NCBI GenBank assembly: GCA_007375535.1
Contig: VMEM01000003.1
Coordinates: 32,811 to 96,810 of the forward strand
DNA: 64,000 nt
DNA from: Parcubacteria group bacterium LiPW_41
GTDB lineage: Bacteria > Patescibacteriota > Minisyncoccia > UBA6257 > GWB1-50-10
Direction of reading: 5' to 3'
The stretch's first letter is position 1, and each line of letters starts with the position of its first letter. Shown piece after piece: positions 9,827 through 52,581 of this stretch. Below the pieces are notes generated by a model. That model made no database searches. It was not told the origin of the DNA and was given only the letters and a program-made list of their open reading frames with translations. The translations under genes were made by a program, and so were the position numbers.

Positions 9827-10237
9827 TTAGAAGTTTTGAGGGAATCTTTTATAGGTTGTTTTTTTTGAATTCCAACCCTCTGGATATTTGCTCTTTGGTT
9901 TTTCTTTTGCATCAACCTCAGGTTCTTCAATCTCATTTTTTTCGGGTTTTTCACCCTTAAGATCATTGATTTGAGATTGCAGATCTGTTATTGCGTCTGC
10001 ATCTTTTTCTTGGCGTTCTTCAACACCGGTTATTCTTTCTTCATGATTTTTTAAGGTTTTATCAACCTTCTTTTTCCACTGAGTGTGAGAATTTTTTGAA
10101 ACTGTTTCAATTTTTTTATTCTCGACTTCCTTGGAAGAAGGGGAGAAGATATTAGTGAGGCAGTACAATCCGAAAACGAAAAGCGCTAGAACCAAAATAA
10201 CGCCAGCAACAACTTGAAGAATTTGTCTTCCAGTCAT
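9827..10237 (-). CDS. Membrane-anchored coiled-coil protein (hypothetical)
   Basis: One N-terminal TM helix, then a charged K/E-rich helical region. Confidence 0.5.
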   Translation of the reverse strand: MTGRQILQVVAGVILVLALFVFGLYCLTNIFSPSSKEVENKKIETVSKNSHTQWKKKVDKTLKNHEERITGVEERQEKDADAITDLQSQINDLKGEKPEKNEIEEPEVDAKEKPKSKYPEGWNSKKTTYKRFPQNF

Positions 10238-30053: not shown

Positions 30054-30057
30054 TCAA

Positions 30058-30088
30058 AAAAGAGCCCTTTTCAAGGCTCTTTTTTTGT
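30058..30088 (+). terminator. Intrinsic terminator after secF
   Basis: Hairpin aagagcc-cttttcaa-ggctctt followed by tttttt. Confidence 0.7.
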
Positions 30089-30165: not shown

Positions 30166-30194
30166 TTGACTTGACACTTGGAATAGTGTATATT
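30166..30194 (+). promoter_or_regulatory. Sigma-70-type promoter TTGACT-N17-TATATT with an extended -10 TG
   Basis: ttgacttgacacttggaatagtgtatatt upstream of ORF 30227. Confidence 0.45.
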
Positions 30195-30226
30195 AACATA
30201 GTAAAACAAAACAATATTTACGCACT

Positions 30227-31237
30227 ATGGTCCAGAATATCGATCAATTTATAAATACTCTTTTCGAGGATTTTAACCCAAAACAAAAGAAAGTTGCTTT
30301 TGGCCGTTTTGGTTTAAAAAATGGGAAGCGTCTTACTCTTCAAGAAATTGGAGATGAACTTGGAATTACCCGAGAGCGCGTCCGTCAAATAGAGGAGCAG
30401 TTACTTTCAAAGCTTCGTGATCGAGTGCGTAAAGATGCGAAGGAGTTGATTGATATTGCAACAAAGCGTCTTGATTCAATGCATGGAGTTGAGTTGGATG
30501 AAACATTCATTTCCGCAATGAAAGAGAAGCTTCCTAGTACTGATGTGAAATATATAACAGAAAAACTTCGATTTGTTTTTCTTGCAGCAGGAATTCCACA
30601 GTACGCAAAAGAAGACGACACAATGAATGCGTATTGGTTTTCAACAAAAGAATCAAAAGAGAATTTTATTTCTTTTGTAAAACGAATGACACAGTTTTTC
30701 AAAGGGGGAGACCGCAACCAAATACTTCGTGAGAAATCATATCTCTCAGAATGCAAGGGATGCGAACATCTTCTTAAGATTCCTAAACATTTTGGCGTGA
30801 ACGTATTTGGAGATCTTGGACTTCGTGATTGGGCAGAAATTGAACCAAAGACAATTCGTGATAAGGCATATCTCGTGTTAAAGAAACATGGACAGCCACT
30901 TCACTTTGTTTCGGTGGCAAAGAATATCAATGAGTTCGGACTTGATAAAAAGAAAGCACACACACAGACCGTACACAATGAATTAATCAAAGATAATCGT
31001 TTTGTACTCGTCGGTCGTGGTATTTATGGTCTTAAGGAGCATGGATTTGAAACCGGAACTGTTCGTGAGGTAATTACTACATTGCTTAAGAAGCACGGAC
31101 CATTAACTTCAAACGAAGTAGTAACCTTGGTAAACAAACAGCGTTTTTTGAAAGAAAATACCATTTTGTTAAGTTTGCAGAATCGTAAATATTTTTCTCG
31201 AATTGAAAACGGAAAATATCACACCAAGCAGGCATAA
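30227..31237 (+). CDS. Sigma-70 region 4 (HTH) domain protein with an uncharacterised C-terminal extension
   Basis: N-terminal RLTLQEIGDELGITRERVRQIEEQLLSKLR matches the sigma-70 region 4.2 helix-turn-helix. The remaining 250 aa have no recognisable family. Confidence 0.6.
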   Translation: MVQNIDQFINTLFEDFNPKQKKVAFGRFGLKNGKRLTLQEIGDELGITRERVRQIEEQLLSKLRDRVRKDAKELIDIATKRLDSMHGVELDETFISAMKEKLPSTDVKYITEKLRFVFLAAGIPQYAKEDDTMNAYWFSTKESKENFISFVKRMTQFFKGGDRNQILREKSYLSECKGCEHLLKIPKHFGVNVFGDLGLRDWAEIEPKTIRDKAYLVLKKHGQPLHFVSVAKNINEFGLDKKKAHTQTVHNELIKDNRFVLVGRGIYGLKEHGFETGTVREVITTLLKKHGPLTSNEVVTLVNKQRFLKENTILLSLQNRKYFSRIENGKYHTKQA

Positions 31238-31272
31238 TAGATAGGGATTAGGGTTTAGTGACTAGAAAAAAT

Positions 31273-31300
31273 CCTCAGGTAATTGGGGATTTTTGTTTTA
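31273..31300 (+). terminator. Weak terminator after the sigma r4 gene
   Basis: Short hairpin aatcc-tcaggtaattgg-ggatt followed by tttttg. Confidence 0.35.
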
Positions 31301-31331
31301 TAAAGATGCTCTTGATGCTACAATATAAGTA

Positions 31332-32720
31332 ATGTTGAATGAGGTTTCAGGACATTTTGGAGATACGTTAACAGAACTTTTAGGAAAGGCTGAAATTTGG
31401 ATATTTCTTGTTCTTGTTGGGGTTTCTATTGCCGTTCCTTTTATTGCTCCACAAGAAGTAGTAAATATTTTTATTCGTTTCCTTGAGCTTACGTGGCCAA
31501 TTTGGTTATTCTTTTTTCTTTTTGAGATAGCAAAACCGCTTTATCTATTTATCAAACAGGAACAGTTTAAAGAAAAAGAGATGGCGGGAGAAAAAAATGC
31601 TCTTCTCGAACTCAGAATCCCACGAGCTCTTGAGAAGGGTCCACAGGCAATGGAGCAGATTCTTTTAGCAATACATGGAATGACTGGATCTCCAGGTGAT
31701 TGGAATAAAATCTGGCTTGATGGAGAAACGATGCTTTGGTTTTCACTTGAAATGGTGAGTATCGGGGGAGAGGTACATTTTTATGTACGAATTCCTAAAA
31801 GAAGTAAGAATCTTGTTGAAGCGGTCATTTTATCAAGTTATTCAGATATTGAAGTCGTTGAGGTTCCAGATTATATTTCGATAATTCCAGAAACAACTGC
31901 TGATTTATATGCTGAAGAAAAAGATATTTGGGGGACTGAAATAAAACTTGCGAAGGATTCAATGTATCCAATTAGAACATATGCATCTTTTGGTACTTCA
32001 GAAGAAAATGCAACTGCACTTGATCCGGCATCATCGTTTCTTGAAATACTCGGCAAATTAAAGACGGGAGAATTTGCTGGGGTCCAAATTGTTATTCAAC
32101 CTGCAGCGAAAGACTGGGGAAAACAATGGGCTGAGGCGTTAGATAAATTAAGGACGCCAAAAGTTGTTGGAACAACTCAACTTACTGATCCAAAAGAAAC
32201 AACCGCAACGATTGATGCAGTTGCACGAAATCTTGCAAAGTCTGCGTTTAAAACGTTAATTCGGGTTATGTATGTTGGTCCAACTACAGTGTTTAAAGAT
32301 GGTTCTGGATTTGTGCGTGGTGGAATTACTGGTGCATTCAATCAATATAGCTCTCCAACATTGAATGCATTTAAAGCAAATGGAGCTGTTGGTACTAGTG
32401 TTGATAAGTGGAAGAAGCCATATATTTTAAATGATGTAAGACTTGAAATGAAAAAACAGAGAATGTTGTGGAATTATCGAAAAAGAAAACTTGCGCCACA
32501 GTCATTTGTTGAAAAGTTTTTCACGTCATTTTCAACAAATGGAAATAATTCTGAGAGTTTTGAGCTCGCACTTGATGGGGTAGCAACAATCTTCCATTTG
32601 CCAACTTCTGTTGTTCTCACCACTCCACACATGCGAAGAGTTGAAAGTAAGAAATCTGGTCCTCCTGTTGGACTTGCAATATTTGGTGAAGAGTCGCAAT
32701 TGGAAAAATTTGGAGGGTGA
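31332..32720 (+). CDS. Module gene 1: membrane protein with two N-terminal TM helices and a large soluble domain (uncharacterised)
   Basis: 462 aa. TM helices around residues 20-70. No recognisable catalytic motif. First gene of a tightly packed, partly overlapping five-gene set. Confidence 0.5.
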   Translation: MLNEVSGHFGDTLTELLGKAEIWIFLVLVGVSIAVPFIAPQEVVNIFIRFLELTWPIWLFFFLFEIAKPLYLFIKQEQFKEKEMAGEKNALLELRIPRALEKGPQAMEQILLAIHGMTGSPGDWNKIWLDGETMLWFSLEMVSIGGEVHFYVRIPKRSKNLVEAVILSSYSDIEVVEVPDYISIIPETTADLYAEEKDIWGTEIKLAKDSMYPIRTYASFGTSEENATALDPASSFLEILGKLKTGEFAGVQIVIQPAAKDWGKQWAEALDKLRTPKVVGTTQLTDPKETTATIDAVARNLAKSAFKTLIRVMYVGPTTVFKDGSGFVRGGITGAFNQYSSPTLNAFKANGAVGTSVDKWKKPYILNDVRLEMKKQRMLWNYRKRKLAPQSFVEKFFTSFSTNGNNSESFELALDGVATIFHLPTSVVLTTPHMRRVESKKSGPPVGLAIFGEESQLEKFGG

Positions 32721-32731
32721 CATTCTAGTTT

Positions 32732-33283
32732 ATGAATATTGATCGAATTATATATGGAACTTGGGACTCTATTGTAGCTTTTTTCTCGCTTCCGTGGGAT
32801 ATGTATTTTACTGTTTTGCGTAATATTTTTGTTATTATTGATGTTGCGCTTGTTGTTCTTATAGTTTCCCTTTTTGTAAAAGCAAGAACATTTGCCCCTC
32901 CACTTTCAAAGAAGTTCTCACAACCTTCTCTTGTGGGTCTTTTGAAGAGAAAGGGTTTAATTCAAAAGTATGTTTCGATGTGGGAAAAGATTGTTGAAGA
33001 TTCTGAAAGCGCTCCGCCACATTCGTATACAACTGCGATTGTGAATGCTGATATTTTAATCGATGAATTATTAAAAGATGCGGGATTTGAAGGAAAGGAT
33101 ATGGGAGAGCGCTTGGGAAAACTTAATGGACTTCGAATCAAATCTCTTGATGGAGTTTGGAGTGGGCACCGTTTGAGAAATAAAATTGTTCACACATCTG
33201 GATTTGAGGCTTCAAAAAAGGCAAAAGATGAAGCACTTAAGGTGTATGAGGAATTTTTGAAGGAGGTAAAAATACTCTCATAA
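32732..33283 (+). CDS. Module gene 2: single-TM membrane protein. Candidate detached membrane anchor of the downstream ATPase.
   Basis: 183 aa. TM helix VIIDVALVVLIVSLFV. Its stop overlaps the start of the ATPase gene by 1 nt, suggesting translational coupling. Confidence 0.45.
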   Translation: MNIDRIIYGTWDSIVAFFSLPWDMYFTVLRNIFVIIDVALVVLIVSLFVKARTFAPPLSKKFSQPSLVGLLKRKGLIQKYVSMWEKIVEDSESAPPHSYTTAIVNADILIDELLKDAGFEGKDMGERLGKLNGLRIKSLDGVWSGHRLRNKIVHTSGFEASKKAKDEALKVYEEFLKEVKILS

Positions 33284-34626
33284 TGACAAAAGAAGGGAAG
33301 ATACAACTTATAAAATATGCTCCGCCACCGCCGGAGCTTCCAATGCTTGGAAAGGTGCAATCAAGTGACGTTTCTTTTATTGGAAGGACAAACTATGTTG
33401 CTGGACTCGAAGAGAAGCGATTTGTTTTTGGTATAAAGAGAATTGATAGAAAAAGACACATATATACCATAGGGAAGAGTGGTGTTGGAAAATCAAAGTT
33501 TTTAGAATTACTCATACGACAAGACATCGCACACAAAAAAGGGGTATGCGTTATTGATCCTCATGGTGACATAACTAGTAATATTTTAGATTGTATTCCA
33601 GAAGACAGAGTTCGCGATGTGTGTATAATTGATCCATCGGATGCTGAGTTTCCTGTATCATTCAATCCATTTTCAAATATTGATCCTATGTTCAGGCATC
33701 AACTTGCTCAAGGATTTATTGAGATAATGAAGAAACAATTTGATGTTAATTGGACCCCTCGAATTGAGCACGTTTTTCGCTTTTCTATTCTTGCACTTCT
33801 TGATTATCCTGATGTCGCAATGATGGGTATGGTCTCCATTCTTACTGATAGCGAATACCGATCTCTGGTGATTCCACATATTAAAGATGCAATGGTAAAA
33901 AAGTTTTGGAGTGTTGAGTTTCCTGAGTATTCAGAAAAGTATGAAAATGAAGCAATTATTCCTTTGGTAAATAAATTAAGTCAATTTCTTTCAAATCCTT
34001 TATTGCATAATATTTTTACACAAAAAGAAAATAAAATTGATTTTGAGGCACTAATGAATGGAGAAAAAATAATTCTCATTAATCTTTCGAAGGGAAAACT
34101 TGGAGAAGAGAATGCGAATTTTTTGGGTTCTATTTTTATTGCAAAAATAAAACAAGCGGGGATGATGCGTGCGGCAATACCAGAGTGGGCCCGAAAGGAT
34201 TTTTATGTTTATATTGATGAATTTCAAAATTTAGTTACTGAAACATTTGAAAATCTTCTTTCTGAGTCAAGAAAATATGGAATTTGTCTTGCTATTTCTC
34301 ATCAATATATGGGGCAACTTTCTAATAAAATGCAGGCAGCCATTATTGGTAGTGTCGGATCGATAGTTATATTTCGTGTTGGGGGAGAGGATGCTGAGCG
34401 ACTTGAGGTTGAAATGACTCCGATATTTAAAGCGAAGGATATGATCAATTTGGGTGTTCAGGAATTTTACATAAAAATGACAATTGATGGCGAAACTCAT
34501 GATCCATTTTCTGCCGATACATTGAAGGTTCTCCCGTTTCCTGGTTCATCGTTTCGAGAATTAATTACAGCTACATCTCGAGAACATTTTGCGATAACGC
34601 GCGCTGAAGCAGAGATGGTGATATAA
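33283..34626 (+). CDS. Module gene 3: P-loop ATPase of the VirD4/TraG - HerA/VirB4 (FtsK-HerA) superfamily, lacking its own TM segment
   Basis: 447 aa. Walker A TIGKSGVGKS. VIDPHGD motif typical of HerA/VirB4/VirD4. Walker B VYIDEFQNL. C-terminal RKYGICLAISHQYMGQL resembling the VirD4/TraG QSxxQL and HerA TQRPS motifs. Confidence 0.65.
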   Translation: MTKEGKIQLIKYAPPPPELPMLGKVQSSDVSFIGRTNYVAGLEEKRFVFGIKRIDRKRHIYTIGKSGVGKSKFLELLIRQDIAHKKGVCVIDPHGDITSNILDCIPEDRVRDVCIIDPSDAEFPVSFNPFSNIDPMFRHQLAQGFIEIMKKQFDVNWTPRIEHVFRFSILALLDYPDVAMMGMVSILTDSEYRSLVIPHIKDAMVKKFWSVEFPEYSEKYENEAIIPLVNKLSQFLSNPLLHNIFTQKENKIDFEALMNGEKIILINLSKGKLGEENANFLGSIFIAKIKQAGMMRAAIPEWARKDFYVYIDEFQNLVTETFENLLSESRKYGICLAISHQYMGQLSNKMQAAIIGSVGSIVIFRVGGEDAERLEVEMTPIFKAKDMINLGVQEFYIKMTIDGETHDPFSADTLKVLPFPGSSFRELITATSREHFAITRAEAEMVI

Positions 34627-35738
34627 TGGTTGTAATGAAGGTATCGCGCGTTATAAAAAAAATTGTGCAGAGAGGGAGAGAGCGCGTGTTACTCGTTGAA
34701 GAAACTGAACGAGGATATTTGGGAAGTGAATTAAATGTTCGAGGAGAGGATCTTGTAATAAAGAAGCAAAAGAAAATAAAAACGCTTACCGATATATCAA
34801 AGTCAATTGTACCTGAATTGATGTATGATCGTATTATTCTTGCGCTTCGAGCAGAGAATGTTGCAACAATTGAAAGTTCTGTTTCGGTATTTCGTGTACA
34901 TCAAGATGAACTTATTGATGATGGAGAATTAGATAGTTTGTTGTTTCATGCTCTCTGGAGTTTTCTCAATAAATTTAGACCTCTCGCGGCAAAGAAGCTC
35001 AACGCATCAGAGCTTGATCTTGTGATTGCAAATATTGCTGTGTTTGGAGTGAAGCTTCAAGGACACAATGTGTTTAATCCACTGGGTTTTTCTGGGAAAG
35101 AGATTGAATTTTCTTTTCGTGTATCATTCATCTCTCGTTCTTTACTCCCTATACTCGAACGAATTGCGAGGCGTTCAGAGTCTGGTCCGATTGTTACGGA
35201 GCGTGGAGCAATTCTTGCAAGTATGATTTCAAGACCAGGTATCCTTTTTGATGTAGATAAAACAAAGACACTTTGGTACGAAATTGGAGATGAGTGTGGA
35301 TTTAGGGGTTCTATTGATTGGGGATATTCGAATATTTACACCTCATTAGGAGAGGTATTTGGTGTTTCTTCAGAATATATATACGAACTTCTTCCTCGTT
35401 TTTCTTCTCATAGAATATCCTTGAGGGTAAAAGGAATTGTTGAGAAAATAATTAGAGATGAATATAAGCAATTTAAAGAATTTGCAGACACATCATTAAA
35501 AGCAGAACACCACGAATCGCTTCGGGGTGAGGGAAGAATAATACACTTTGAAGATGAAAATATCGCATCGGTTTTTTCATCTGACGAGCGATATAAGATA
35601 TCTGATAAATCATTTTTCCTTGGGCAAAAAACATCTTTGGCGCTTGCATCGTTTCCTTTTGTACATCCACAATATGAATATTTAAATCAGCTTTTGCGAC
35701 GAAGGGCAAAATGGCTCGTCCCATTAAATAGTGAATAA
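34626..35738 (+). CDS. Module gene 4: cytoplasmic protein of unknown function
   Basis: 370 aa. No TM segment and no recognisable motifs. Start overlaps the ATPase stop. Confidence 0.45.
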   Translation: MVVMKVSRVIKKIVQRGRERVLLVEETERGYLGSELNVRGEDLVIKKQKKIKTLTDISKSIVPELMYDRIILALRAENVATIESSVSVFRVHQDELIDDGELDSLLFHALWSFLNKFRPLAAKKLNASELDLVIANIAVFGVKLQGHNVFNPLGFSGKEIEFSFRVSFISRSLLPILERIARRSESGPIVTERGAILASMISRPGILFDVDKTKTLWYEIGDECGFRGSIDWGYSNIYTSLGEVFGVSSEYIYELLPRFSSHRISLRVKGIVEKIIRDEYKQFKEFADTSLKAEHHESLRGEGRIIHFEDENIASVFSSDERYKISDKSFFLGQKTSLALASFPFVHPQYEYLNQLLRRRAKWLVPLNSE

Positions 35739-35780
35739 CGCGTTTCTGTGTTTTTGTTTATGTTAAGATGAAATAGAACA

Positions 35781-37403
35781 ATGGAAAAAAAGATATTTCT
35801 TGAAAAAAATGATGGGTTAGAAGTTGCTGTTGAAAGTCTTATTGAAACAAAATCTGACACTGTTATTTTGAATGTTCCAAAAGATTCAGTTTTAGGAAGA
35901 TCGGTAAATAATTTTCATGTATTAAAGCGAGAGGGGAATACTGCAGGAAAGGCTCTCATGATTGAGTCGGTTGATGATCATATTCTTGAACTTGCATCTC
36001 TTGCAACAATTACTGCAATTAATCCTGTGTTTAAAAAAACAGAGCGGGCGGTTTCTGATATTATTCCTCGTGCCGCAGTAATTTTAAAAAAAAGTACATT
36101 TGGTTTAGAAAAAAAAGAGACACAGACAAAGGAAGAGGTGACAAAAGAAAAAGAAGAGTCGGAAGTTCCACCATCTTCAAGGACTCCAGCGGTCACATTT
36201 TATACGCAGCCGAAGTTATCAGAAAAAGCCAATTCCAATTTTTCGGTAGAGAAGAAGGTTATTAATAAGACGATGTTTATAATTGGAGGATTGGTTTCTA
36301 TTGGTGTTTTTTTGTTCATCTATTTAGGTTGGTTTGTTCTTCCAAAAGCTTCAATTGTGATCACCATGAGGCAAAAAGCAGTCCAATTTGATGAGACTGT
36401 ATTGGTGTCGCAGAATTATGCAAAAACTGAGGTCACGGACTCAAAAATTCTTTTAAGGGGGCAATTAGTTTCCTCGAATGGGAATATTTCTTTGCCGGTT
36501 TCTGGGGTAAAACAAGCAGAGGGAGGCGCAACAAATGCAAGGGGAATAATTAAGGTGTTTAATGCTTATGGAACAACACCTCAAAAATTAGTAGCAACAA
36601 CAAGATTTCAGGCGCCTGATGGAAAAATATTTAGAACACAATCTGACATAGTGGTACCTGGTGGAATCATGGTTAAAGGGGTGTTAAAACCAGGGAGTAT
36701 AAATGTTGATGTTGTTGCAAGTGAAGCAGGAGATTCATATAATCTTCCTCCGATTGAAAAGTGGGTAATTCCTGGATTTAAAGGAACTCCACGATACGAA
36801 AAATTTTATGGTACCTCTGAATCTGCTATGGAGGGGGGAGGAAGTGGTGTGACAATTGCTGTATCATCATCAACTGAGGGTGAAACTGAAGAAACGGTAA
36901 TTGAGAAATTGAGAATCTCTCTTGAGGAAAAAAAGAAAATTGTTAATACGGTTGGATTGAAGGTTCCTGAGGGCGCGGTGTCTTTTGTGGTGACAAAAAA
37001 AGATTTACAGTATTCTTCTTCGTCTGATTCGTTGTTATACGTTGAAGGAACACTTAGAGAAATTGGGTTTAGCGAAGAAGATCTGAAATCCGCAATTTTT
37101 GAACAAACAAAAGAAGAGGCTGGCGAGAAAATGAGGATGCGTGTAGTAAATATATCGTATGGAACATCAACTCCTGATTTTTCTGCTGGGTCACTTTCAA
37201 TGAAAATAAAAGGGTCTATTATTTTTGAGGAAGATATTGAAGTTGATTCTCTAAAACCTTTAATCTTAGGAAAAAAGACCGATGAGGTTCGTTCATATAT
37301 TTTGTCTCTTCCGTGGGTCGAATCGGCAAAGATATCATTCAGATTTCCTTGGCTTTCTAGAATCCCAACGAATCCTGAAAAAGTAGAGTTAAAACTTGAG
37401 TAA
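35781..37403 (+). CDS. Module gene 5: bitopic membrane protein (cytoplasmic N-domain, one TM, large extracytoplasmic C-domain)
   Basis: 540 aa. Acidic linker. TM MFIIGGLVSIGVFLFIYLGWFVL at about residue 200. C-terminal 320 aa predicted outside. Confidence 0.5.
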   Translation: MEKKIFLEKNDGLEVAVESLIETKSDTVILNVPKDSVLGRSVNNFHVLKREGNTAGKALMIESVDDHILELASLATITAINPVFKKTERAVSDIIPRAAVILKKSTFGLEKKETQTKEEVTKEKEESEVPPSSRTPAVTFYTQPKLSEKANSNFSVEKKVINKTMFIIGGLVSIGVFLFIYLGWFVLPKASIVITMRQKAVQFDETVLVSQNYAKTEVTDSKILLRGQLVSSNGNISLPVSGVKQAEGGATNARGIIKVFNAYGTTPQKLVATTRFQAPDGKIFRTQSDIVVPGGIMVKGVLKPGSINVDVVASEAGDSYNLPPIEKWVIPGFKGTPRYEKFYGTSESAMEGGGSGVTIAVSSSTEGETEETVIEKLRISLEEKKKIVNTVGLKVPEGAVSFVVTKKDLQYSSSSDSLLYVEGTLREIGFSEEDLKSAIFEQTKEEAGEKMRMRVVNISYGTSTPDFSAGSLSMKIKGSIIFEEDIEVDSLKPLILGKKTDEVRSYILSLPWVESAKISFRFPWLSRIPTNPEKVELKLE

Positions 37404-37418: not shown

Positions 37419-37447
37419 TTGACTCTTTTTGTTTTTCTTCATATAAT
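37419..37447 (+). promoter_or_regulatory. Consensus sigma-70 promoter TTGACT-N17-TATAAT upstream of the infA-rpmJ-rpsM ribosomal operon
   Basis: ttgactctttttgtttttcttcatataat. Exact hexamers, 17-nt spacer. Confidence 0.55.
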
Positions 37448-41690: not shown

Positions 41691-41692
41691 TT
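41667..41692 (+). terminator. Plus-strand intrinsic terminator (hairpin and T-run) with no upstream plus-strand CDS
   Basis: aatcgcaca-tat-tgtgcgatt followed by ttttttt. Overlaps the stop of the minus-strand gene. Confidence 0.5.
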
Positions 41693-43064
41693 ATTCTTCA
41701 ATTGTTGTCTTAAGAAATTCACCACCATCAGTAAGAACAAAGAGATCTCCACTAATAAGGAGTGATTTTTTAACCTCCTTTGCAATCGTTGCAACATTTC
41801 TTGGTTGTCTAATATCGGTTTCTTCAATGCGGATATTTTTTCCTACTTTTATCATGAAGTAGTTTTCAGCAAACGGAATCCATTCAAAAGTGTTTAAGTC
41901 AGCACCAGAAGAGATAGAAAATGAGTCAATTGATCCCTCTGGTTTCATCACATCTCCTTCGTAGTCCTCGAGGTAGAGAATGGATGCGATGTGGTTTGTA
42001 TCAATGAAGGCAGCGCGGAGACTATCTGGAGAAAATGTTGCATACTCGATATTTGTTCCTATTCTTTCTACTGTTTGGGCTGTACGATTGAATAAATCGA
42101 GTGTCTTGTCTGAATTGAGAAGGAATGCATACGAACCATCTTTACTTGGTATTATTTCTTTTGTAGTTGAGGCATTTATTGGAAACACATATTTTGAATC
42201 AAGAATAAGGTTTCTGATTACGAGATCTCCTTCTTTGTTTGTAACAAACAATTCTTTTGCTCCAAGTCCAATTGCCTTTGGTGTTCCTTCGGTTTCAATG
42301 GTTCCGATGGAACTTTTCTTTAGATCAAAAATATAGAGATTTTTGGCGGTTTGTATGAGGAGTTTTGTTTTGCTGAATGGATGAAACGATATTTTTTGAA
42401 TCTGAGTGAGATCTGTTATGTCTTCTGATTCGATGATTGTTCTAAATAAGACAGAAAAATCGCGGGCAACTGTTGGGTTTGTTAGATCAATTAAAAATAG
42501 TGATGAACCTTTTCTTGTGACAATATAAGAAGAGCTCATGTCGTATGCTTCCACTTTTGATCCTTTTATTGTCTTCTCGTCTTCGAGTAAGAGTGTTGAG
42601 CTTGTTGTTTCAAAGATAAAACCCTGAGATGTTGGAAATACATTGTTTATGTTTTTATTGAGTGTCTCGAATTCTTGAGTAATTTTCCAGAGTGTTATGC
42701 GAGCAGAGACTGAAACTTTTCCTGGAGTTACTTCGAGAGTTTTTGTAAATGGTGTGTACCCATCTTTCATTATTGAGATTGAGTAGTTTCTTGGAACGAG
42801 GTTCGAAATAAGAATTCCACCACCGAACATGCCTTGTGTTTTTGGATATTTTTTCCCATCAATGAATATTGAGGCATCCGTTGGGGTAAAGTGTACAAAA
42901 ATTGAGCCAGATTTTGTTAATCGGAAATGCTCTGTATCAAAAACAAGTCCCTGCATAGCAAGTACTGCATATGTCCCTGCAACAATAAAAATAATCGTGC
43001 AGAGCACGAAAAGCATCGTTCTTGTGGTTTTTCTAACAACCATAATTCTTTTATATGATACCAT
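41691..43064 (-). CDS. PEGA domain membrane protein with a C-terminal beta-propeller-like domain
   Basis: N-terminal TM. PEGA-like segment ASIFIDGKKYPKT...PRNYSISIMKDGYTPFTKTLEVTPGK. Repetitive beta-rich C-terminal 300 aa. Confidence 0.6.
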   Translation of the reverse strand: MVSYKRIMVVRKTTRTMLFVLCTIIFIVAGTYAVLAMQGLVFDTEHFRLTKSGSIFVHFTPTDASIFIDGKKYPKTQGMFGGGILISNLVPRNYSISIMKDGYTPFTKTLEVTPGKVSVSARITLWKITQEFETLNKNINNVFPTSQGFIFETTSSTLLLEDEKTIKGSKVEAYDMSSSYIVTRKGSSLFLIDLTNPTVARDFSVLFRTIIESEDITDLTQIQKISFHPFSKTKLLIQTAKNLYIFDLKKSSIGTIETEGTPKAIGLGAKELFVTNKEGDLVIRNLILDSKYVFPINASTTKEIIPSKDGSYAFLLNSDKTLDLFNRTAQTVERIGTNIEYATFSPDSLRAAFIDTNHIASILYLEDYEGDVMKPEGSIDSFSISSGADLNTFEWIPFAENYFMIKVGKNIRIEETDIRQPRNVATIAKEVKKSLLISGDLFVLTDGGEFLKTTIEE

Positions 43065-43151: not shown

Positions 43152-44189
43152 TTGAGGGTTGGTAGAAGATTGATACTTTTATTTATGTTTACACGAAAAA
43201 TTGGAATAGATCTTGGAACAACAAATACACTTGTGTTTCTTCCTGAACGGGGGATTGTTATTAACGAACCGACGGTAGTTGCACTTCGAAAGCCAGACAA
43301 TACTGTGCTTGCGGTAGGAGCCGAAGCAAAAGAGATGGTAGGAAGAACCCCTGATGATATTGTGACATACCGACCGCTAAAAGATGGAGTAATTGCGGAG
43401 TATTTTATTACTCAAGCGATGTTAAAATATTTTATTTCAAAGAGTATTGGTAAATTTAATATTGTTAAGCCTGAGGTTGTCATTTCTGTTCCTGCGGGAA
43501 TTACATCGACAGAATATCGTGCGGTTATGAACGCGGCGAAAGAGGCTGGGGCACGAGATGTGTATTTGGTGAAGGAGCCACTTCTCGCTTCTCTTGGCGC
43601 GGGAATTCCAATTCATTCTGCTGAAGGAAACATGATTGTAAATATTGGTGGTGGAACAACCGAGGTTGCTGTTATTTCCTTAGGAGGAATTGTTACATGG
43701 AATAGTTTGCGTGTTGCGGGAAACAAACTTGATAATGCTATTTCTGAATATATAAAGAAGAAGTATGCCCTTGCGATTGGTGAAAATACCGCTGAAAACA
43801 TCAAAATTACCATTGGAACTGCGATGCAGAATCGAAACAAGATGGAAATGAAGATCAGGGGACGTGACCTTCATACGGGACTTCCAAAGGATATGACAGT
43901 GAATTCAAATGAGATTGCTGAAGCGATAAACCCACATCTTGTTGAAATTATGAATGCAGTTCAAGGAGTGTTTAATGTAACCCCACCAGAGCTTGCGGCG
44001 GATATTATGGAGAAGGGAATTATTCTTTCTGGAGGAAGCTCGAACTTAAGAGACTTAGAAGAATTTTTTAAACGCTCACTTGGTGTTTCGGCATATCTTG
44101 CCGAAGAATCAATTCTTTGTGTTGCAAAAGGAACTGCGACTATTTTGAATCACCTTGATATTTATAAGCGCACTTTACTTAGAAAATAA
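43152..44189 (+). CDS. mreB: Rod shape-determining actin homologue MreB (copy 1)
   Basis: [10 protein letters not shown] phosphate-1 motif, NEPTVVA, and GGGTTEVAV phosphate-2 motif. The likely true start is Met at 43182. Confidence 0.85.
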   Translation: MRVGRRLILLFMFTRKIGIDLGTTNTLVFLPERGIVINEPTVVALRKPDNTVLAVGAEAKEMVGRTPDDIVTYRPLKDGVIAEYFITQAMLKYFISKSIGKFNIVKPEVVISVPAGITSTEYRAVMNAAKEAGARDVYLVKEPLLASLGAGIPIHSAEGNMIVNIGGGTTEVAVISLGGIVTWNSLRVAGNKLDNAISEYIKKKYALAIGENTAENIKITIGTAMQNRNKMEMKIRGRDLHTGLPKDMTVNSNEIAEAINPHLVEIMNAVQGVFNVTPPELAADIMEKGIILSGGSSNLRDLEEFFKRSLGVSAYLAEESILCVAKGTATILNHLDIYKRTLLRK

Positions 44190-46790: not shown

Positions 46791-48489
46791 GCGACAATCT
46801 CACTATTTTTTGAAGACAAGCAAGACATTTTCCGAGGAGGATTCGATCATTTCAGCTCGTCTTTTAAAACAGGCAGGCTTTATTCAGGAGTCAGTGGCTG
46901 GCCGATATTATTTTTTACCAATTGGATATAAGGTCCAACAGAATATTATGAAGGTGGTAAAAGAGGAAATGGATAGGGTGGGGGCACAGGAAATGATTGC
47001 TCCAATTTTGCATCCACTTGAATTATGGAAAGAAACAAATAGGACTAACACTACTGGGTTTGAATTAATGAAGGTGAAAGATCGCCGTGGATCAGAGTTC
47101 GCCTTAGGAGGAACAGCCGAGGAAATGTTTGTTGATTTGGTTCGAAAATATGAATTGAGTTATAAAAATCTTCCATTTCATTTATATCAATTTTCTCCAA
47201 AATTTCGGGATGAGATTCGTGCGCGCGGAGGATTACTTCGAGTGCGTGAATTTATCATGAAAGATGGATATTCATTTCATAGAAATGAGGATGATTTTAA
47301 AACAACATATGAGGAGATGAAGAATGTGTATTCAAAGATATTTGAGAGAATGGGGCTCAAAACTGTCATTGTTGAAGCAGATAATGGATACATTGGTGGT
47401 GAATATTGTCATGAATTTATTGTTGAAGCCGAGAACGGAGAAAGTAGATTTTTTGTGTCGGAAGACGGGATATATGCCGCACACGAAGACATTGCAAAAT
47501 TTAAGCGCGATCCGGCAAATGCTAACGAAAAAGAATTGCCGTTTGAAATTATCTCACAACCTGAATGGGTGCAAACGATGGATGATAATGTAAAACATTA
47601 TCAAAAAGACAAAAAACATTTTCTAAAGAATGTAGTGTATAAAAATAGTACAACTGGGGAACTTATTATTGCTGTAGTGACAGGGGACTTAGAGGTGAAT
47701 CAGACAAAACTCGAACATGTACTAAAGATGGTTGGACAGCTTTCTCCTGCGGAAGATGCTGATTTAGAGAAGTTAGGAACGAAACACGGATATGTCCACT
47801 CATGGGGGCATAACGCGCGGTACATCGGAGATATTGTTCTTGCTGAAGCCAAAAATCTCATTGGAGGATTAAAGGAAGATACAACCGACTCAATTAATGT
47901 AAATCATGGGAGAGACTTCACTTGTGAGTTTCTTGCGGATATTGCATCAGCGAAGCCAGGCGATAAGTCAGAGGGTGGAAGTGTATTAGTAGAGAAGCGA
48001 GGAATAGAGGTAGGAAACACTTTCCAGCTTGGGTATCATTACACCACCCTTATGAAGGGGGCGACCTATAAAGATGAGGATGGTACTGAGAAGCCATTTT
48101 ATATGGGATGTTATGGAATAGGTATTGGTCGCACCATGGCAACATTGGTTGAGCAGTTTCATGATGCAAGGGGAATACAATGGCCAGAAGTAATTGCTCC
48201 ATTTAAGGTTCATCTGATTGCATTGCTTACAAAAGACGAAGATTTGAAAAAGGAGGCAGAATTACTCTATACTAGGCTTGTTGCATTAGGGGTAGAGGTA
48301 TTATTTGATGATCGAGAAGGAGTTTCTGCTGGTGAAAAACTTGCCGATGCAGACCTTGTTGGAATCCCTTATCGAGTGCTTATAAGTGAGAAAACAAGAA
48401 AAGAGGGAAAATTGGAATTGAAAAAGAGAATAGAAACTGTCGCACAATTATTGAGTGAGGATGAAATAATAAAAATTGTTACAAAATGA
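46789..48489 (+). CDS. proS: Prolyl-tRNA synthetase
   Basis: Class II aaRS motifs and a ProRS anticodon-binding domain. Start placed at ATG 46789 (MRQSHYFLKTSKTF...), which aligns with ProS N-termini. The tracked ORF start at 46750 lies inside the repeat element. Confidence 0.85.
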   Translation: MRQSHYFLKTSKTFSEEDSIISARLLKQAGFIQESVAGRYYFLPIGYKVQQNIMKVVKEEMDRVGAQEMIAPILHPLELWKETNRTNTTGFELMKVKDRRGSEFALGGTAEEMFVDLVRKYELSYKNLPFHLYQFSPKFRDEIRARGGLLRVREFIMKDGYSFHRNEDDFKTTYEEMKNVYSKIFERMGLKTVIVEADNGYIGGEYCHEFIVEAENGESRFFVSEDGIYAAHEDIAKFKRDPANANEKELPFEIISQPEWVQTMDDNVKHYQKDKKHFLKNVVYKNSTTGELIIAVVTGDLEVNQTKLEHVLKMVGQLSPAEDADLEKLGTKHGYVHSWGHNARYIGDIVLAEAKNLIGGLKEDTTDSINVNHGRDFTCEFLADIASAKPGDKSEGGSVLVEKRGIEVGNTFQLGYHYTTLMKGATYKDEDGTEKPFYMGCYGIGIGRTMATLVEQFHDARGIQWPEVIAPFKVHLIALLTKDEDLKKEAELLYTRLVALGVEVLFDDREGVSAGEKLADADLVGIPYRVLISEKTRKEGKLELKKRIETVAQLLSEDEIIKIVTK

Positions 48490-49511
48490 TATTAAAGAAA
48501 ATAATTGGAATAGATCTTGGAACCGATACGACTCAAATTTATTTGAAAGGTTCTGGAGTTGTGGTGAATGAACCAACAATCGTTGCGTGCAACAATCGAA
48601 CAGATCGTGTTGTTGCAGTGGGGAATGAAGCAAAAAAAATGCTTGCACGGACACCTGCACATATTACTGCGCTTCGTCCAATTATGAATGGAGTCATTGC
48701 AGATTTTGATATGGTGAAGGAATTGCTTCAAAGTTTTTTGAAGCGAGATGATATTCCATGGTCTTGGATTACTGAAACAATTGTAAGTATTCCAACAAAT
48801 CTTACCGAAGTAGAAAGGAAATCAGTTGAGGATTTATTAAAAGAATCTGGAGCAACTTCTGTGTATCTAATTGAGCAACCACTTGTGGCAGCGTTTGGAA
48901 GTCGATTGGATATAAATCTTCCTTCGGCATTTCTTGTTGTTGATATTGGTGCAGGAACTACTGATATGGCAATTATTTCAATGAATGGAATTGTCGTCTC
49001 TCGTCGTCTCAAGATTGCTGGGGATTATCTCAATCAAGAAATTATAAAAGGAGTACGTGATGAATTACGTTTGCATATTGGAGAGCCAACCGCTGAAGAA
49101 ATAAAGATTGCAGTAGGTTCAGTTATTCCGACTGGCGAACGTCTCGAGCTTACCGTTCGCGGAAGGGATGTGGCCTCTGGACTTCCAAGAGAAATTTCAA
49201 TTCGTGACACACAGGTTCGTTTGTGGCTTGTTCGACCCGTAAAACAAATCATTGAAGCAATAAAAGATTTAATTGAATCAGCTCCACCAGAGCTTGTTGG
49301 AGATATTTACAAAAATGGAATGTATTTTTGTGGTGGGGGAAGTTTGCTTCGGGGAATCGATCAGGTTGCGGAAAAAGAAATTGGTGTGCGTGTTCAAATT
49401 GTTGAAGATCCTTTAGCGTGTGTAGCTCGTGGAACTGGTCTTGTGTGTGAGAAATTTGATACACACAAACACTTGTTAAATAACTTTTCACGTTTGAAGC
49501 TTGATGAGTAG
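48486..49511 (+). CDS. mreB: MreB-like actin homologue (copy 2), first gene of the mreBCD-mrdA cluster
   Basis: IGIDLGTDTT, NEPTIVA, DIGAGTTDMAI motifs. Overlaps the proS stop. Confidence 0.8.
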   Translation: MILKKIIGIDLGTDTTQIYLKGSGVVVNEPTIVACNNRTDRVVAVGNEAKKMLARTPAHITALRPIMNGVIADFDMVKELLQSFLKRDDIPWSWITETIVSIPTNLTEVERKSVEDLLKESGATSVYLIEQPLVAAFGSRLDINLPSAFLVVDIGAGTTDMAIISMNGIVVSRRLKIAGDYLNQEIIKGVRDELRLHIGEPTAEEIKIAVGSVIPTGERLELTVRGRDVASGLPREISIRDTQVRLWLVRPVKQIIEAIKDLIESAPPELVGDIYKNGMYFCGGGSLLRGIDQVAEKEIGVRVQIVEDPLACVARGTGLVCEKFDTHKHLLNNFSRLKLDE

Positions 49512-49543: not shown

Positions 49544-50239
49544 ATGAAAACAACTCGCATATTAGTTCAGGTGTTATTACTCATTTCTCTTATAGTTGCA
49601 CTCCTTATGTTTCGTAGTGAAATAGGTGATTTTATTGTTGGACTTCGTTCCGTTGTGTTTGGTGTGCTTGGTCCCTCATGCGAAGTACAAAAAATGAAAG
49701 ACGTTCAAGCAGAGAATGTATCACTCAAAAAACAAATTGAATTACTTTCACTTAAGATGGGAATAAAGGAGAATAGTGGAGAGCTTGTAGCAAATGTTTA
49801 TTCATCTTATCCATTTAATGACAAAGTTCATATTGTGGTTGATAAGGGGAGTAATGATGGAGTTAACGTTGGAATGCCGGTAATGGTACAAAAAAACATT
49901 GTTATCGGGAAAGTCATTTCAGTTAAAAAAACGCAAAGTGAGATTCAAACTATTTTTGATCCAGAATGGAAAACAAGTGTAGTGATTGGTACCTCGACAG
50001 TAAAGGCGGTTTTGAAAGGGGGAAATACTCCTGAGGTTCAATTTATTCCTAAAGATGCACACATTGTCTCTGGTGAGGAAGTATTAAATATCGCACAGGA
50101 ATTTCCAATTCATACTATACTTGGATCAATTAAATCGGTTCGGGAGGATGAGAAGAAGTTATGGCAGGTCGCGAGTATTGAATTGCCAGTTTCTTTTGAT
50201 GCACTTCGTACGGTAACTATACTTACGACATTTCCATAA
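49544..50239 (+). CDS. mreC: Rod shape-determining protein MreC
   Basis: N-terminal TM and coiled coil, then MreC beta-barrel motifs (VVIGTSTVKAVLKG, IVSGEEVLNIAQEFP). Confidence 0.75.
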   Translation: MKTTRILVQVLLLISLIVALLMFRSEIGDFIVGLRSVVFGVLGPSCEVQKMKDVQAENVSLKKQIELLSLKMGIKENSGELVANVYSSYPFNDKVHIVVDKGSNDGVNVGMPVMVQKNIVIGKVISVKKTQSEIQTIFDPEWKTSVVIGTSTVKAVLKGGNTPEVQFIPKDAHIVSGEEVLNIAQEFPIHTILGSIKSVREDEKKLWQVASIELPVSFDALRTVTILTTFP

Positions 50240-50242
50240 TTT

Positions 50243-50719
50243 ATGAAAAATTTTTCTTCCTTTCTCTTTCTTCTTTTAATTGGAGTTATTGCGCTCATTC
50301 TTATGAATTCGGGCGCACTTCGTTTTTTTAATATAAACCCTAATTTATTTCTCTTATTTATAATTGCGCTCATTGCTACTCGCGCTAAAAACAGTATTAT
50401 CGTTTCCTTATTGTTTTTTAGTCTATTTGTTGGATTTGTTTTGTATCCCTTTTGGATTTTAGAATATTCACTTTTGTGTCTCGTTGGGTTTTTATTACTT
50501 TTCTTTCGTTCACGACTTACTGGAAATCAAATAAGTGACTCACTAATTCTTTCTTTTTCCGGTTCTCTCTTTTTCTCACTTTGTTTGTGGTTTTTTTCTC
50601 ATTCGTCATTTTCTATATCCCAATTACTTTATCAACTTATTTATGACTTGATATGTGGGTTTATTTTTGTATTGTTGCTTCGACCGATAATTAAAAGGGG
50701 AGGAATTTCAAAGCTATGA
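50243..50719 (+). CDS. mreD: Rod shape-determining protein MreD (polytopic membrane protein)
   Basis: 158 aa, five TM helices, positioned between mreC and mrdA. Assignment by context and topology. Confidence 0.5.
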   Translation: MKNFSSFLFLLLIGVIALILMNSGALRFFNINPNLFLLFIIALIATRAKNSIIVSLLFFSLFVGFVLYPFWILEYSLLCLVGFLLLFFRSRLTGNQISDSLILSFSGSLFFSLCLWFFSHSSFSISQLLYQLIYDLICGFIFVLLLRPIIKRGGISKL

Positions 50720-52581
50720 GATCAAGAAAGAATATTGAATTTGAAGAAATACTTTCTGACAAAAGCGTCGAGGGAAGTGTGCGAGAGGTTCCTGTTTCTG
50801 AAAGGACTTTTTTTGTCTTTGTTTCTTTTGTTGTTTTGATAGTAGGAATAGCAATCGTTGAACTTTTGTGGCTAAATGTTGGAAAGCGAGATCAGTATGT
50901 TGAAAGAGCACTTGATAATGTTTCTGACTCAAAGGTAAAACATTCTCCTCGAGGTATTATTTTTGATAGGTTTGAAAAAGCAATGACTGAAAACGCGCCA
51001 GCATTCAATGTGTATCTTATTCCTCAAAAACTTCCCATTGATATAGTTCAACGCGAAGAAGCAATAAAACGGATTGCAGATATTTTGAAGATGTCAGAGT
51101 GGGAACTTGTGCAGAAAATTGGAGACAGGGATTGGTCATTGTCTGGGAAAATGCTTTTAAGTGACGACATTACTCAGGATCAACTTGTTGAACTTTCTTC
51201 TTCTGAACATCTGGGCATTTCTATTGAGGAAAGTTTTCGACGAATTCATTCGGTCCCGTATGCATTTTCTGAATTTATTGGATATACAGGGCTTGTGAAC
51301 AAAGAGGATATTTCAAATGACTCCAATCTTACTATTGATGATCAGATTGGTCGTTCTGGACTTGAAATGTATTATGATCAATTTCTACGTGGAATTAATG
51401 GAAAAGACGTTGTGTATAAAACAGCAAGGGGAGAGATAAAAAATGAGCGCATAGAGCGAGAGCCAAAACCAGGAAAGAATGTTATTACATATATTGATTC
51501 TGAGCTTCAAACCGTTTTTTATAATAGTTTAAAGAAACAACTTGAATTTCTTGGAAGGGATGTTGGTGTTGGTATTGCAATTGATCCTAGAAATGGAGAA
51601 GTTCTTGCTCTAACCTCTGTTCCTGGATTTGATCCACATAAAATAGGAAGTGCGTTAGTTGATTCTCGGAGACCTTTGTTTAATAGAACCATTGCGGGGG
51701 TATATAACCCAGGATCAACAATAAAACCGCTTGTTGCTGTTGCTGCCCTTACGGAGAATATAATAACTCCAGTTTCAAGTTTTTTTTCTTCTGGAATGCT
51801 TGAAATACCAAACCCATACAATCCTTCACTTCCTTCCCGTTTTCCTGACAACAAAGCGCATGGATGGGTGAATGTTCGGTCTGCGATTGCTCGTTCGAGT
51901 AATGTGTTTTTTTATATTGTTGGAGGTGGATATCAGAACCAGAAAGGACTTGGAATCTACAAACTTAAGGAATGGTGGGGAGCTTTTGGGCTTGCAGAAA
52001 GAACTGGCATTGATATTCCCGGAGAAAAAGTTGGATTTCTTCCTGATCCAGAGTGGAAAGAAAAGGCAACAGATGATCCTTGGCGTTTAGGAGATACTTA
52101 CCATGTATCAATTGGACAGGGAGATTTTTCAGTAACTCCAATTGAACTATTAAATTACATTTGTGCAATTGCTAACGGGGGAACTCTCTACAAACCAAGA
52201 GTTGTCGATCGTATTAATGGTGTTGATGGAAGTGAATTGTTAAAAACATATCCAAGTGTTATAAGAGATTTAAAAACGAAAATTTCTTCGAGTGCACTTC
52301 ATGAGGTGCAAGAAGGAATGAAGGACACAATCGAAATGTCATACGGAACTGGATATTTACTTCATGATATTCCAATGCGCATTGCGGCAAAATCAGGAAC
52401 AGCACAGGTTCAAAATAACGCAAAGACAAATGCATTTTTTGTAGGATATGCCCCAGCGGAAGATCCAAAGATTGCTATACTCGTACTTGTCGAGAACTCA
52501 CGAGAAGGGAGCTTGAACGCAACTCCAGTAGCCAGAGAGGTTCTCCTATGGTACTATAATAATCGTCTCAAGGAGTTATAA
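50716..52581 (+). CDS. mrdA: Penicillin-binding protein 2 (elongasome transpeptidase)
   Basis: N-terminal TM and dimerisation domain. Transpeptidase motifs STIKP (SxxK), SSN (SxN) and KSGTA (KTG). Confidence 0.85.
   Translation: MRSRKNIEFEEILSDKSVEGSVREVPVSERTFFVFVSFVVLIVGIAIVELLWLNVGKRDQYVERALDNVSDSKVKHSPRGIIFDRFEKAMTENAPAFNVYLIPQKLPIDIVQREEAIKRIADILKMSEWELVQKIGDRDWSLSGKMLLSDDITQDQLVELSSSEHLGISIEESFRRIHSVPYAFSEFIGYTGLVNKEDISNDSNLTIDDQIGRSGLEMYYDQFLRGINGKDVVYKTARGEIKNERIEREPKPGKNVITYIDSELQTVFYNSLKKQLEFLGRDVGVGIAIDPRNGEVLALTSVPGFDPHKIGSALVDSRRPLFNRTIAGVYNPGSTIKPLVAVAALTENIITPVSSFFSSGMLEIPNPYNPSLPSRFPDNKAHGWVNVRSAIARSSNVFFYIVGGGYQNQKGLGIYKLKEWWGAFGLAERTGIDIPGEKVGFLPDPEWKEKATDDPWRLGDTYHVSIGQGDFSVTPIELLNYICAIANGGTLYKPRVVDRINGVDGSELLKTYPSVIRDLKTKISSSALHEVQEGMKDTIEMSYGTGYLLHDIPMRIAAKSGTAQVQNNAKTNAFFVGYAPAEDPKIAILVLVENSREGSLNATPVAREVLLWYYNNRLKEL

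Follow-up and report, generated by a model that had tools for sequence, protein, structure and literature searches.

The 64-kb stretch of DNA analyzed in this study (the window) belongs to a 230-kb contig of Parcubacteria group bacterium LiPW_41, and it contains five tightly packed open reading frames (ORFs) centered on a motor ATPase related to those of type IV secretion systems (T4SSs). The five ORFs are referred to as g1 to g5 in their order, the first three (g1-g2-g3) are collectively called the triad, and the gene preceding them, which encodes a sigma-r4/HARE-HTH protein, is called sigHARE. The features of the locus are as follows.

31332-32720, + strand: g1, DUF8128 protein, 462 aa (ORF listing)
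32732-33283, + strand: g2, single-pass membrane protein with a probable HEPN-like domain, 183 aa (ORF listing)
33283-34626, + strand: g3, soluble P-loop motor ATPase, 447 aa (ORF listing)
34626-35738, + strand: g4, cytoplasmic protein with a predicted actin fold of the FtsA/PilM type, 370 aa (ORF listing, AF2 model)
35781-37403, + strand: g5, bitopic membrane protein, 540 aa (ORF listing, hydropathy)
30227-31237, + strand: sigHARE, protein with sigma-70 region 4 and HARE-HTH domains, 336 aa (Pfam)
31267-31294, + strand: terminator-like hairpin (consensus scan), followed by a promoter-like site at 31297-31324 (TTTATA, 16 nt spacer, TG-TACAAT)

The five ORFs are true genes rather than chance ORFs, because homologues of all five exist elsewhere. 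The g2/g3 and g3/g4 junctions each consist of TAATG, a stop-start overlap of one base, and the intergenic gaps between g1 and g2 and between g4 and g5 are 11 nt and 42 nt, respectively. The -10-like hexamer TACAAT ends only 7 nt 5' of the g1 ATG (31319-31334); thus, the operon probably starts upstream of g1, after the hairpin at 31267-31294, and the g1 mRNA may be leaderless. Another strong promoter-like site was found at 37419-37447, 3' of g5, and sigHARE has signals of its own, with a promoter-like site at 30166-30199 and terminator-like hairpins at 30056-30085 and 31267-31294. All of these promoter and terminator calls are consensus matches and carry no evidence of function; as such, they fit a single transcript running from g1 to g5.

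The g3 protein carries the motifs GKSGVGKS (residue 64, Walker A), VIDPHGD (90), YIDEF (310, Walker B), RKYG (330) and ISHQYMGQL (338), and hydropathy and the positive-inside rule, which were also applied to g1, g2 and g5, gave no convincing transmembrane (TM) segment. Four Pfam families were matched above their gathering cut-offs, namely TrwB_AAD_bind (41.1 bits, cut-off 20.5), T4SS-DNA_transf (25.7 bits, cut-off 20.1), TraG-D_C (29.9 bits, cut-off 22) and DUF87 (30.8 bits). A preliminary description of this DNA, made from the sequence, had listed five packed ORFs with these sizes and membrane topologies and had named these motifs; the ORF listing and the hydropathy analysis returned the former exactly, all of the motifs are present, and the Pfam matches bear out its assignment of g3 to the VirD4/TraG-HerA superfamily of ATPases with no TM segment of its own. 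The VirB4-specific profiles of Pfam were not matched by g3 (AAA_10 reached 14.0 bits, below its cut-off of 27.5, and CagE_TrbE_VirB gave no match), and neither was the FtsK_SpoIIIE family. All NCBIfam matches (VirD4-like CD1115, TraD, CedD and TrbE) fell far under the equivalog cut-offs, as illustrated by CedD (5.6e-7, 28.6 bits, cut-off 600) and TrbE (16.3 bits, cut-off 1020). When the PDB was searched with a profile of the g3 family, TrwB was retrieved with an E-value of 0.005. Taken together, the Pfam, NCBIfam and PDB searches of g3 lean towards type IV coupling proteins (T4CPs) over VirB4. In hhalign comparisons with proteins of pSK41, g3 showed weak relationships of similar strength to the VirB4 protein TrsE (1.2e-5) and the T4CP TrsK (1.8e-4), and PADLOC returned weak matches to mad8 (1.4e-8), DndH and HerA. 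Judging from these profile comparisons, g3 appears to belong to the VirB4/VirD4 branch of the FtsK-HerA superfamily as a member in its own right, and we refrain from calling it a bona fide VirD4.

More than 4,400 homologues of g3 were retrieved, and none of the best 120 has an identity to g3 below 65%; the sources of these 120 are named as Jorgensen-, Lipton-, Brenner- and Pace(i)bacteria and Minisyncoccia. The first 55 residues of g3 (KYAPPPP...GRTNY...; 33283-33450) are near-invariant. Relatives of the g3 ATPase were also found in phages and viral contigs.

The g1 protein is assigned to DUF8128 (Pfam PF26449) by precomputed annotation. The DUF8128 family contains 2,820 cluster representatives at 50% identity, and among the 150 listed most are stand-alone proteins of 400-530 aa. 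Its predicted topology is a TM hairpin at residues ~20-70 followed by a large cytoplasmic domain. An AF2 model of g1, built with 40 sequences, had a pLDDT of 81 and a pTM of 0.76, and in a Foldseek search with this model 13 of the 14 matches with E-values of at most 0.001 were chains of TrwK, the VirB4 protein of R388 (best E-value 4.7e-5), in agreement with another, independent fold comparison. No P-loop ATPase other than TrwK was present among the top 60 fold matches, which suggests that the similarity lies in the N-terminal portion of VirB4, outside its ATPase. Thus, the model predicts that g1 is a non-ATPase protein whose cytoplasmic alpha/beta domain folds like the VirB4 N-terminal domain (NTD). 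The C-terminal tail of g1 (residues 421-454) is among the most conserved stretches of the family, yet it is predicted to be disordered (pLDDT <50).

Natural fusions connect g1 with g3. The phage profile phrog_5156 (824 positions) covers both proteins collinearly, in that its positions 75-223 correspond to residues 131-297 of g1 and its positions 388-772 to residues 33-416 of g3. In gp91 of Bacillus phage CP-51 (911 aa), residues 72-206 align to the g1 profile and residues 416-787 to the g3 profile. A Patescibacteria paralogue (L048 12938-14722, cut by the end of the locus) likewise combines a TM segment, a DUF8128-like region and the ATPase in one protein, as does a 1,035-aa protein with DUF8128-like and ATPase parts on a viral contig of IMG/VR (L093 4789-7896); the latter two fusions indicate that the family is present in both split and fused forms. 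A tblastn search with g1 against phage genomes gave no match, but the PHROG profile and hhalign do connect the two. Close relatives of DUF8128 were not found in the IMG/VR viral contigs. Because the fusions join g1 to g3, the membrane-anchored front half of the split ATPase should be sought in g1 and not in g2, and we propose that g1 is the membrane-anchored N-terminal half of this ATPase.

The g2 protein is predicted to have a single TM segment (residues ~30-52) and a cytoplasmic C-terminal domain. This domain, whose helical nature is deduced from the sequence pattern, contains the motif W-x-A-H-R-x-R-N-x-L-V-H, which is common to 36 aligned orthologues; in these, H146 shows no variation, and the conservation of R149, N150 and H154 is at least 90% each. 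The motif corresponds to the R-N-x3-H form of HEPN and agrees with the R-x4-6-H pattern, and the weak Pfam matches of the orthologues converge on HEPN families. A search of g2 against PDB sequences gave no significant match. Thus, g2 is likely a membrane-tethered HEPN-like domain.

To define the conservation of the triad, we used 80 species-representative loci around g3 orthologues (±8 kb each), of which 65 were informative, having at least 3 kb upstream of g3. A contiguous g1-g2-g3 was found in 33 of the 65; in three others g1 was near but non-contiguous, and in the remaining 29 neither g1 nor g2 was near. In the triad loci with enough upstream sequence, sigHARE was directly 5' of g1 in 30 of 31, and secF was further upstream in 23 of 27. 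The median identities to the window proteins in the triad loci were 65.6% for g3, 60.7% for SecD, 57.7% for SecF, 40.4% for g1, 40.1% for sigHARE and 32.9% for g2; the g3 motor evolves like a core housekeeping gene. T4SS genes adjoined the triad in none of the 80 loci. Relaxase and mating-pair-formation genes, whose proximity is a criterion for a T4CP, were found neither among the annotated ORFs of the window nor adjoining the triad in the 80 loci.

The sigHARE protein matches the Pfam families Sigma70_r4 (7.8e-12) and HARE-HTH (3.6e-9). It is associated with the triad and may be a DNA-binding partner or regulator of it. In Bacillus phage CP-51 (L083), a putative sigma factor, gp87 (7786-8430), lies three genes away from the fused DUF8128-ATPase gp91, a situation that may be compared with sigHARE directly 5' of g1 in Paceibacteria and that is maybe a coincidence.

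Three further observations were made around the relatives of g2 and g3. A longer g3 paralogue (600-840 aa) was found in L032 (6317-8479); its C-terminal part carries a treble-clef zinc finger (zf_Tbcl_2, 4.7e-14), and it also has an extended tail of low complexity. The next gene (8490-9917) encodes a surface protein in which Lamin-tail and PKD domains are combined with a C-terminal anchor, and similar arrangements occur in L034, L036, L044, L049 and L070. The presence of this paralogue agrees with the literature, in which genomes have on average about two T4CP homologues each. Moreover, tandem arrays of up to five cysteine-rich proteins (~550-620 aa) lie directly 3' of g3 orthologues in many Paceibacteria (L010 9567-11258 onward; L011, L012, L014, L022, L031 and others). 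Each of these proteins contains many CxxC pairs, with a weak treble-clef match at the C-terminus (zf_Tbcl_2, E-value 0.0027), and a role as partner or substrate of the ATPase is conceivable for them; none is encoded in the 64-kb window. Finally, in the two species of L023 and L040, g2 and g3 are separated by an inserted gene for a protein of family PF05635 (23S-rRNA-intervening-sequence protein, a four-helix bundle of ~120 aa), and the window contains a copy of this family at 59944-60297, 22 kb downstream of the cluster.

The chromosomal surroundings of the locus are of a housekeeping nature, as is the content of the source contig. Upstream in the window are genes for glycerate kinase, PPDK, uvrB, a patatin-like protein, endonuclease IV, tgt, queA and secDF, and downstream are infA-rpsM-rpsK-rpsD-rpoA-rplQ-rplM-rpsI, mreB (two copies), mreC, PBP2, proS, hrcA and dnaK. 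No integrase, relaxase, transposase, VirB4/VirB6, ComEC or DprA is encoded by the annotated ORFs of the window; no tRNA gene was found in it, and the G + C content is flat (0.35-0.40). Hence, none of the marks of a mobile or integrative element was seen, whether integrase, relaxase, transposase, tRNA border, atypical composition or patchy distribution, and the chromosomal context is kept in 33 species loci. The preliminary description had likewise placed the locus between secDF and a ribosomal operon with no mobile genes nearby and had favored a chromosomal, lineage-specific system over a conjugative element, a view that the 80-locus synteny and the gene content of the window sustain.

Several other genes of the window deserve mention. 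Two MreB paralogues together with mreC, mreD and PBP2 are encoded at 43152-44189, 48486-49511 and 49544-52581, and a PEGA-domain membrane protein lies on the opposite strand at 41691-43064. A 669-aa secreted or surface protein (10413-12422) matches Por_Secre_tail, the C-terminal sorting signal of type IX secretion, with 38.8 bits (cut-off 27), which is unexpected in a monoderm Patescibacterium; directly after it is a large surface protein with fibronectin-III repeats (12494-14857). The sole sign of pili seen in the window is a gene for a type IV pilin-like protein (59077-59889; N-terminal N_methyl motif, 1.4e-6), which lies apart from the cluster.

The two remaining genes of the cluster, g4 and g5, show a different distribution. 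The g4 protein has no convincing TM segment by hydropathy, and its sequence gave no profile match in Pfam, NCBIfam or the PDB. Its AF2 model (pLDDT 84, pTM 0.84) matched FtsA (1.4e-13, TM-score about 0.5), PilM (5.9e-11) and the cytoplasmic domain of GspL/EpsL (1e-6) in a Foldseek search of the PDB. Proteins of the FtsA/PilM/GspL type tether or adapt machinery to bitopic membrane partners. The g4 model shares their actin-like fold, but identity to FtsA is only 9-12%, no Pfam family is matched and the g4 family is tiny, with only 16 homologues in 5.8 billion proteins. A DxG-type motif is expected at the first phosphate-binding position of the FtsA/PilM actin-like family, where g4 reads 'VEETERG', and its C-terminal helix is conserved and basic/aromatic (YLNQLLRRRAKWLVP). 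The g5 protein is predicted to have one TM segment (residues ~165-187) with the N-terminus inside; a strongly conserved cytoplasmic N-terminal part of ~110 aa and a charged linker precede it, and a beta-rich part of ~350 aa lies outside. Unlike the partners in PilM and FtsA systems, g5 has no recognized PilN or FtsN/FtsQ signature. Its orthologues match the Pfam GlxA beta-barrel (31.6 bits, cut-off 27) and, weakly, Baseplate_J, and g5 also gave a match to the baseplate wedge family phrog_6 (1.8e-6) and one to POTRA_1 below the threshold (E-value 0.015). A function for g5 was not derived from these POTRA_1, GlxA-barrel and baseplate-like matches, as they are weak and do not add up. For g1, g2, g4 and g5 alike, the sequences found nothing significant in Pfam, NCBIfam, PADLOC and the PDB (the DUF8128 assignment of g1 being precomputed), and fold comparison alone was informative.

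Among the 80 species loci, g4-g5 is present in L015 only; it was found further in two close relatives, L084 and L085, which have the full order secF-sigHARE-g1-g2-g3-g4-g5-infA. In L086 and L087, g4 occurs without g1-g3. The most distant g4 homologue, that of L087, is 30% identical to g4 of the window and is found in the context alaS / Sua5-like / g4 / g5, yet the N-terminal domain of g5 in this locus is still 58% identical over 108 aa. We conclude that g4-g5 is a separate, lineage-restricted pair and that the slot between g3 and infA is variable; the pair may or may not interact with g3.

The layout of the triad recalls several known systems. VirB4 (such as TrwK of R388) and VirB3-VirB4 fusions resemble g1 plus g3 in combining a membrane element, a non-ATPase NTD and a motor of the FtsK-HerA superfamily, and TrwK is the only strong structural match of the g1 model. 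Unlike VirB4, the two halves are here the separate genes g1 and g3 with the third gene g2 between them, and g3 scores higher with T4CP than with VirB4 profiles (TrwB_AAD_bind 41 bits versus 14 for AAA_10 and 16 for TrbE). Unlike VirB4 systems, there are no VirB3, VirB6 or VirB8 genes near the triad, and the virB4 of the T4SS of this lineage is at another locus. With the T4CPs (VirD4, TrwB, TraD and TraG), g3 shares scores above the Pfam gathering cut-offs, a C-terminal region of the TraG-D_C type and a spacing of ~240 aa between Walker A and Walker B, which leaves room for an inserted helical domain. In contrast to them, g3 has no N-terminal TM segment in the same polypeptide and no relaxase or T4SS in its neighborhood; it is paired with a VirB4-NTD-like protein, scores far below the NCBIfam equivalog cut-offs and is about equidistant from TrsK and TrsE. 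TM-less T4CPs exist in Gram-positive systems. Proteins of the g3 type have been counted among the 'T4CP homologues' of Patescibacteria (PMC12102498).

The archaeal proteins CedB and CedD also combine TM segments, a VirB4-NTD-like domain and a HerA/VirB4-like ATPase in a chromosomal, non-conjugative setting with a role in DNA import; CedD, described as 'TM + VirB4-like NTD + ATPase', is needed for this import (bioRxiv 10.1101/2024.09.27.615246). However, they are single polypeptides that work with a CedA/CedA1 channel and pilus proteins not seen here, and the similarity is weak and partial. A parallel in sequence is provided by the Bacillus phage fusions (CP-51 gp91 and phage G gp156; phrog_5156), which have the same two modules in the same order, homologous in sequence to g1 and g3. 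They differ in being fused, in having no equivalent of g2 and in an ATPase identity of only ~26%, and CP-51 gp91 has no N-terminal TM hairpin.

On this basis, we consider it reasonably probable that the locus comprises two units, a triad with a split ATPase of the T4SS family acting at the membrane and the separate, lineage-restricted g4-g5 pair. The triad would be a vertically inherited chromosomal operon, usually 3' of sigHARE. With the TM hairpin and the predicted VirB4-NTD fold contributed by g1 and the soluble VirD4/VirB4-type motor by g3, the two proteins would jointly rebuild the layout of TM segment, NTD and motor. A g3 hexamer would dock on membrane-anchored g1, for which the disordered g1 tail (residues 421-454) and g3 residues 1-55 are candidate contacts, and ATP hydrolysis would move a polymer at or across the cytoplasmic membrane; by analogy with T4CPs, VirB4 and Ced, this polymer may be a nucleic acid. 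The HEPN-type domain of g2, at the same membrane face, could bind, cut or gate RNA or DNA. In the g4-g5 pair, an FtsA/PilM-like protein tethered to the membrane would be accompanied by a bitopic protein of the envelope.

Several results weigh against this interpretation. In the 29 informative loci with a g3 orthologue (63-65% identical) and no g1 or g2 nearby, the motor may not be strictly dependent on g1/g2, or these genes may lie elsewhere in the genomes. No channel component (VirB6 or ComEC-like) is encoded beside the triad. The sequence of g1 has no similarity to any PDB chain, so that its link to VirB4 is one of predicted fold, and a comparison with TrsD of pSK41 gave no similarity either (hhalign E-value 0.44), for which reason the name TrsD is not used. 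For g2, the Pfam matches among the 36 orthologues were HEPN_Swt1 in eight (best 0.0019), HEPN_RiboL-PSP in three, and DUF4145 and Hypoth_Ymh in one each, all below the gathering cut-offs and none in the window protein. Finally, as the distances of g3 to TrsE and TrsK are similar, 'T4CP-type' is a label at the level of Pfam and not a phylogenetic placement.

An alternative hypothesis is that g3 is the T4CP of the Patescibacteria T4SS encoded near dnaA, with g1 and g2 as membrane receptor and accessory subunits. T4CP genes are often away from virB4, VirB4 and T4CP homologues are both near-universal in Patescibacteria, and stand-alone VirB4-NTD-like proteins (TrsD) are known T4SS components (PMC12102498); in addition, g3 passes the thresholds of Pfam T4CP families. 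Nevertheless, T4CP homologues occur in 2,918 genomes versus 2,417 for VirB4, at about two per genome, and in S. epibionticum the homologue was reported to be non-essential while the T4SS genes are essential (PMC12102498). No recognizable coupling protein was found in the essential T4SS of that organism by Wang et al. 2023. A VirB4-like front end of its own (g1) would be superfluous for a motor serving as the receptor of another VirB4, and the triad is never beside T4SS genes in the 80 loci. We regard this hypothesis as unlikely. The preliminary description had instead seen g2 and g3 as a classical VirD4 split in two and all five genes as one new translocation machine. The TAATG overlaps at g2/g3 and g3/g4, the single TM segment of g2 and the synteny of all five genes in the close relatives L015, L084 and L085 are in its favor, and g4 fits the known role of FtsA/PilM/GspL-fold proteins as adaptors of secretion ATPases. 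The description was right in that the ATPase and a membrane-anchored N-terminal module are encoded separately; however, DUF8128 is the partner of the ATPase in every natural fusion and g2 in none, and the soluble domain of g2 resembles HEPN instead of the N-terminus of VirD4, so that g1 is the proposed anchor. That description had also seen, by eye, no known secretion, pilus or competence component in the other four proteins, but the g1 model matches TrwK and the g4 model FtsA, PilM and GspL. Of the outcomes that it had named as refuting, a placement of the ATPase in a housekeeping family and an integrative element were not seen; five-gene synteny, by contrast, is confined to close relatives, as g4-g5 is absent from 79 of the 80 species loci, occurs beside alaS and a sua5-like gene without g1-g3, and has 16 homologues of g4 against more than 4,400 of g3, whereas the triad is widely conserved. 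Its g2-anchor and obligate five-gene parts are largely refuted already, and the model as a whole is very unlikely.

The FtsA-like model of g4 invites a reading of the cluster as a cell-division or segregation module, in which an FtsK-like DNA pump (g3) would work with an FtsA-like g4 and an FtsQ-like g5 near mreB/mreC/mreD/PBP2. FtsA is indeed the best match of the g4 model (1.4e-13), whose basic C-terminal helix is conserved; g5 is bitopic with a weak match to the FtsQ-type POTRA_1 (E-value 0.015), g3 belongs to the FtsK-HerA superfamily with housekeeping-like conservation, and cell-shape genes lie 6-15 kb downstream. However, g4-g5 is confined to a narrow lineage and therefore does not explain a class-wide triad, the POTRA match is under the threshold, FtsK_SpoIIIE is unmatched by g3, and FtsK is mentioned in papers on the Saccharibacterium TM7x; we give this module a still smaller chance. 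The combination of a HerA/T4CP-like ATPase with a HEPN nuclease could also denote an anti-phage defense system or the remnant of a mobile element, in line with the weak PADLOC matches of g3 to mad8 (1.4e-8), DndH and HerA, the HEPN-type motif of g2 and the ATPase relatives in phages and viral contigs. Against this stand the fixed syntenic site between secDF and the ribosomal alpha operon in many species and the conservation of g3, which exceeds that of SecD and is the opposite of what is seen in patchy, fast-evolving defense islands. The annotated ORFs of the window include no integrase or transposase, the window has no tRNA and its G + C content is flat, and no close relative of g1 was found in IMG/VR. 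This makes defense or a mobile remnant the least probable of the explanations considered.

The split-ATPase interpretation can be extended to a bolder proposal, which is unlikely. The triad would then be a stand-alone nucleic-acid import machine, essential across Paceibacteria, in which a split VirB4-like motor pulls host DNA or RNA inward through the membrane and a membrane-tethered HEPN nuclease makes usable nucleotides from it, independently of ComEC-type competence and of the dnaA-proximal T4SS; its ATPase would represent a third T4SS-ATPase branch, hitherto unrecognized and intermediate between VirB4 and VirD4.

Most Patescibacteria have been reported to possess VirB4-based T4SS loci, which in Paceibacteria lie close to dnaA/dnaN (Quinonero-Coronel et al. 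2025; PMC12102498). The same study reported 5,713 VirD4-type homologues in 2,918 of 3,035 Patescibacteria genomes, just 148 of them near virB4, and its authors did not rule out an exaptation of these homologues for other functions (PMC12102498). The abundance of T4CP homologues away from virB4 in Patescibacteria is thus already known (PMC12102498). In contrast, the term 'DUF8128' occurs in no searchable paper and a description of the g1-g2-g3 operon was found nowhere, with the reservation that literature coverage was incomplete.

The locus gives these 'orphan' VirD4-like motors of Patescibacteria a concrete, testable context, consisting of a conserved operon, a VirB4-NTD-like membrane partner and a HEPN-type protein. 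What it suggests is a self-contained machine and no mere displaced coupling protein. Through it, DUF8128 becomes connected with the lineage of T4SS ATPases, and the fused relatives in Bacillus phages could be examined in a tractable host. The Patescibacteria account for much of the diversity of bacteria; they are unable to synthesize nucleotides and depend on host cells for their living. Should the substrate prove to be a nucleic acid, the triad would have direct relevance to the way in which these bacteria feed on their hosts.

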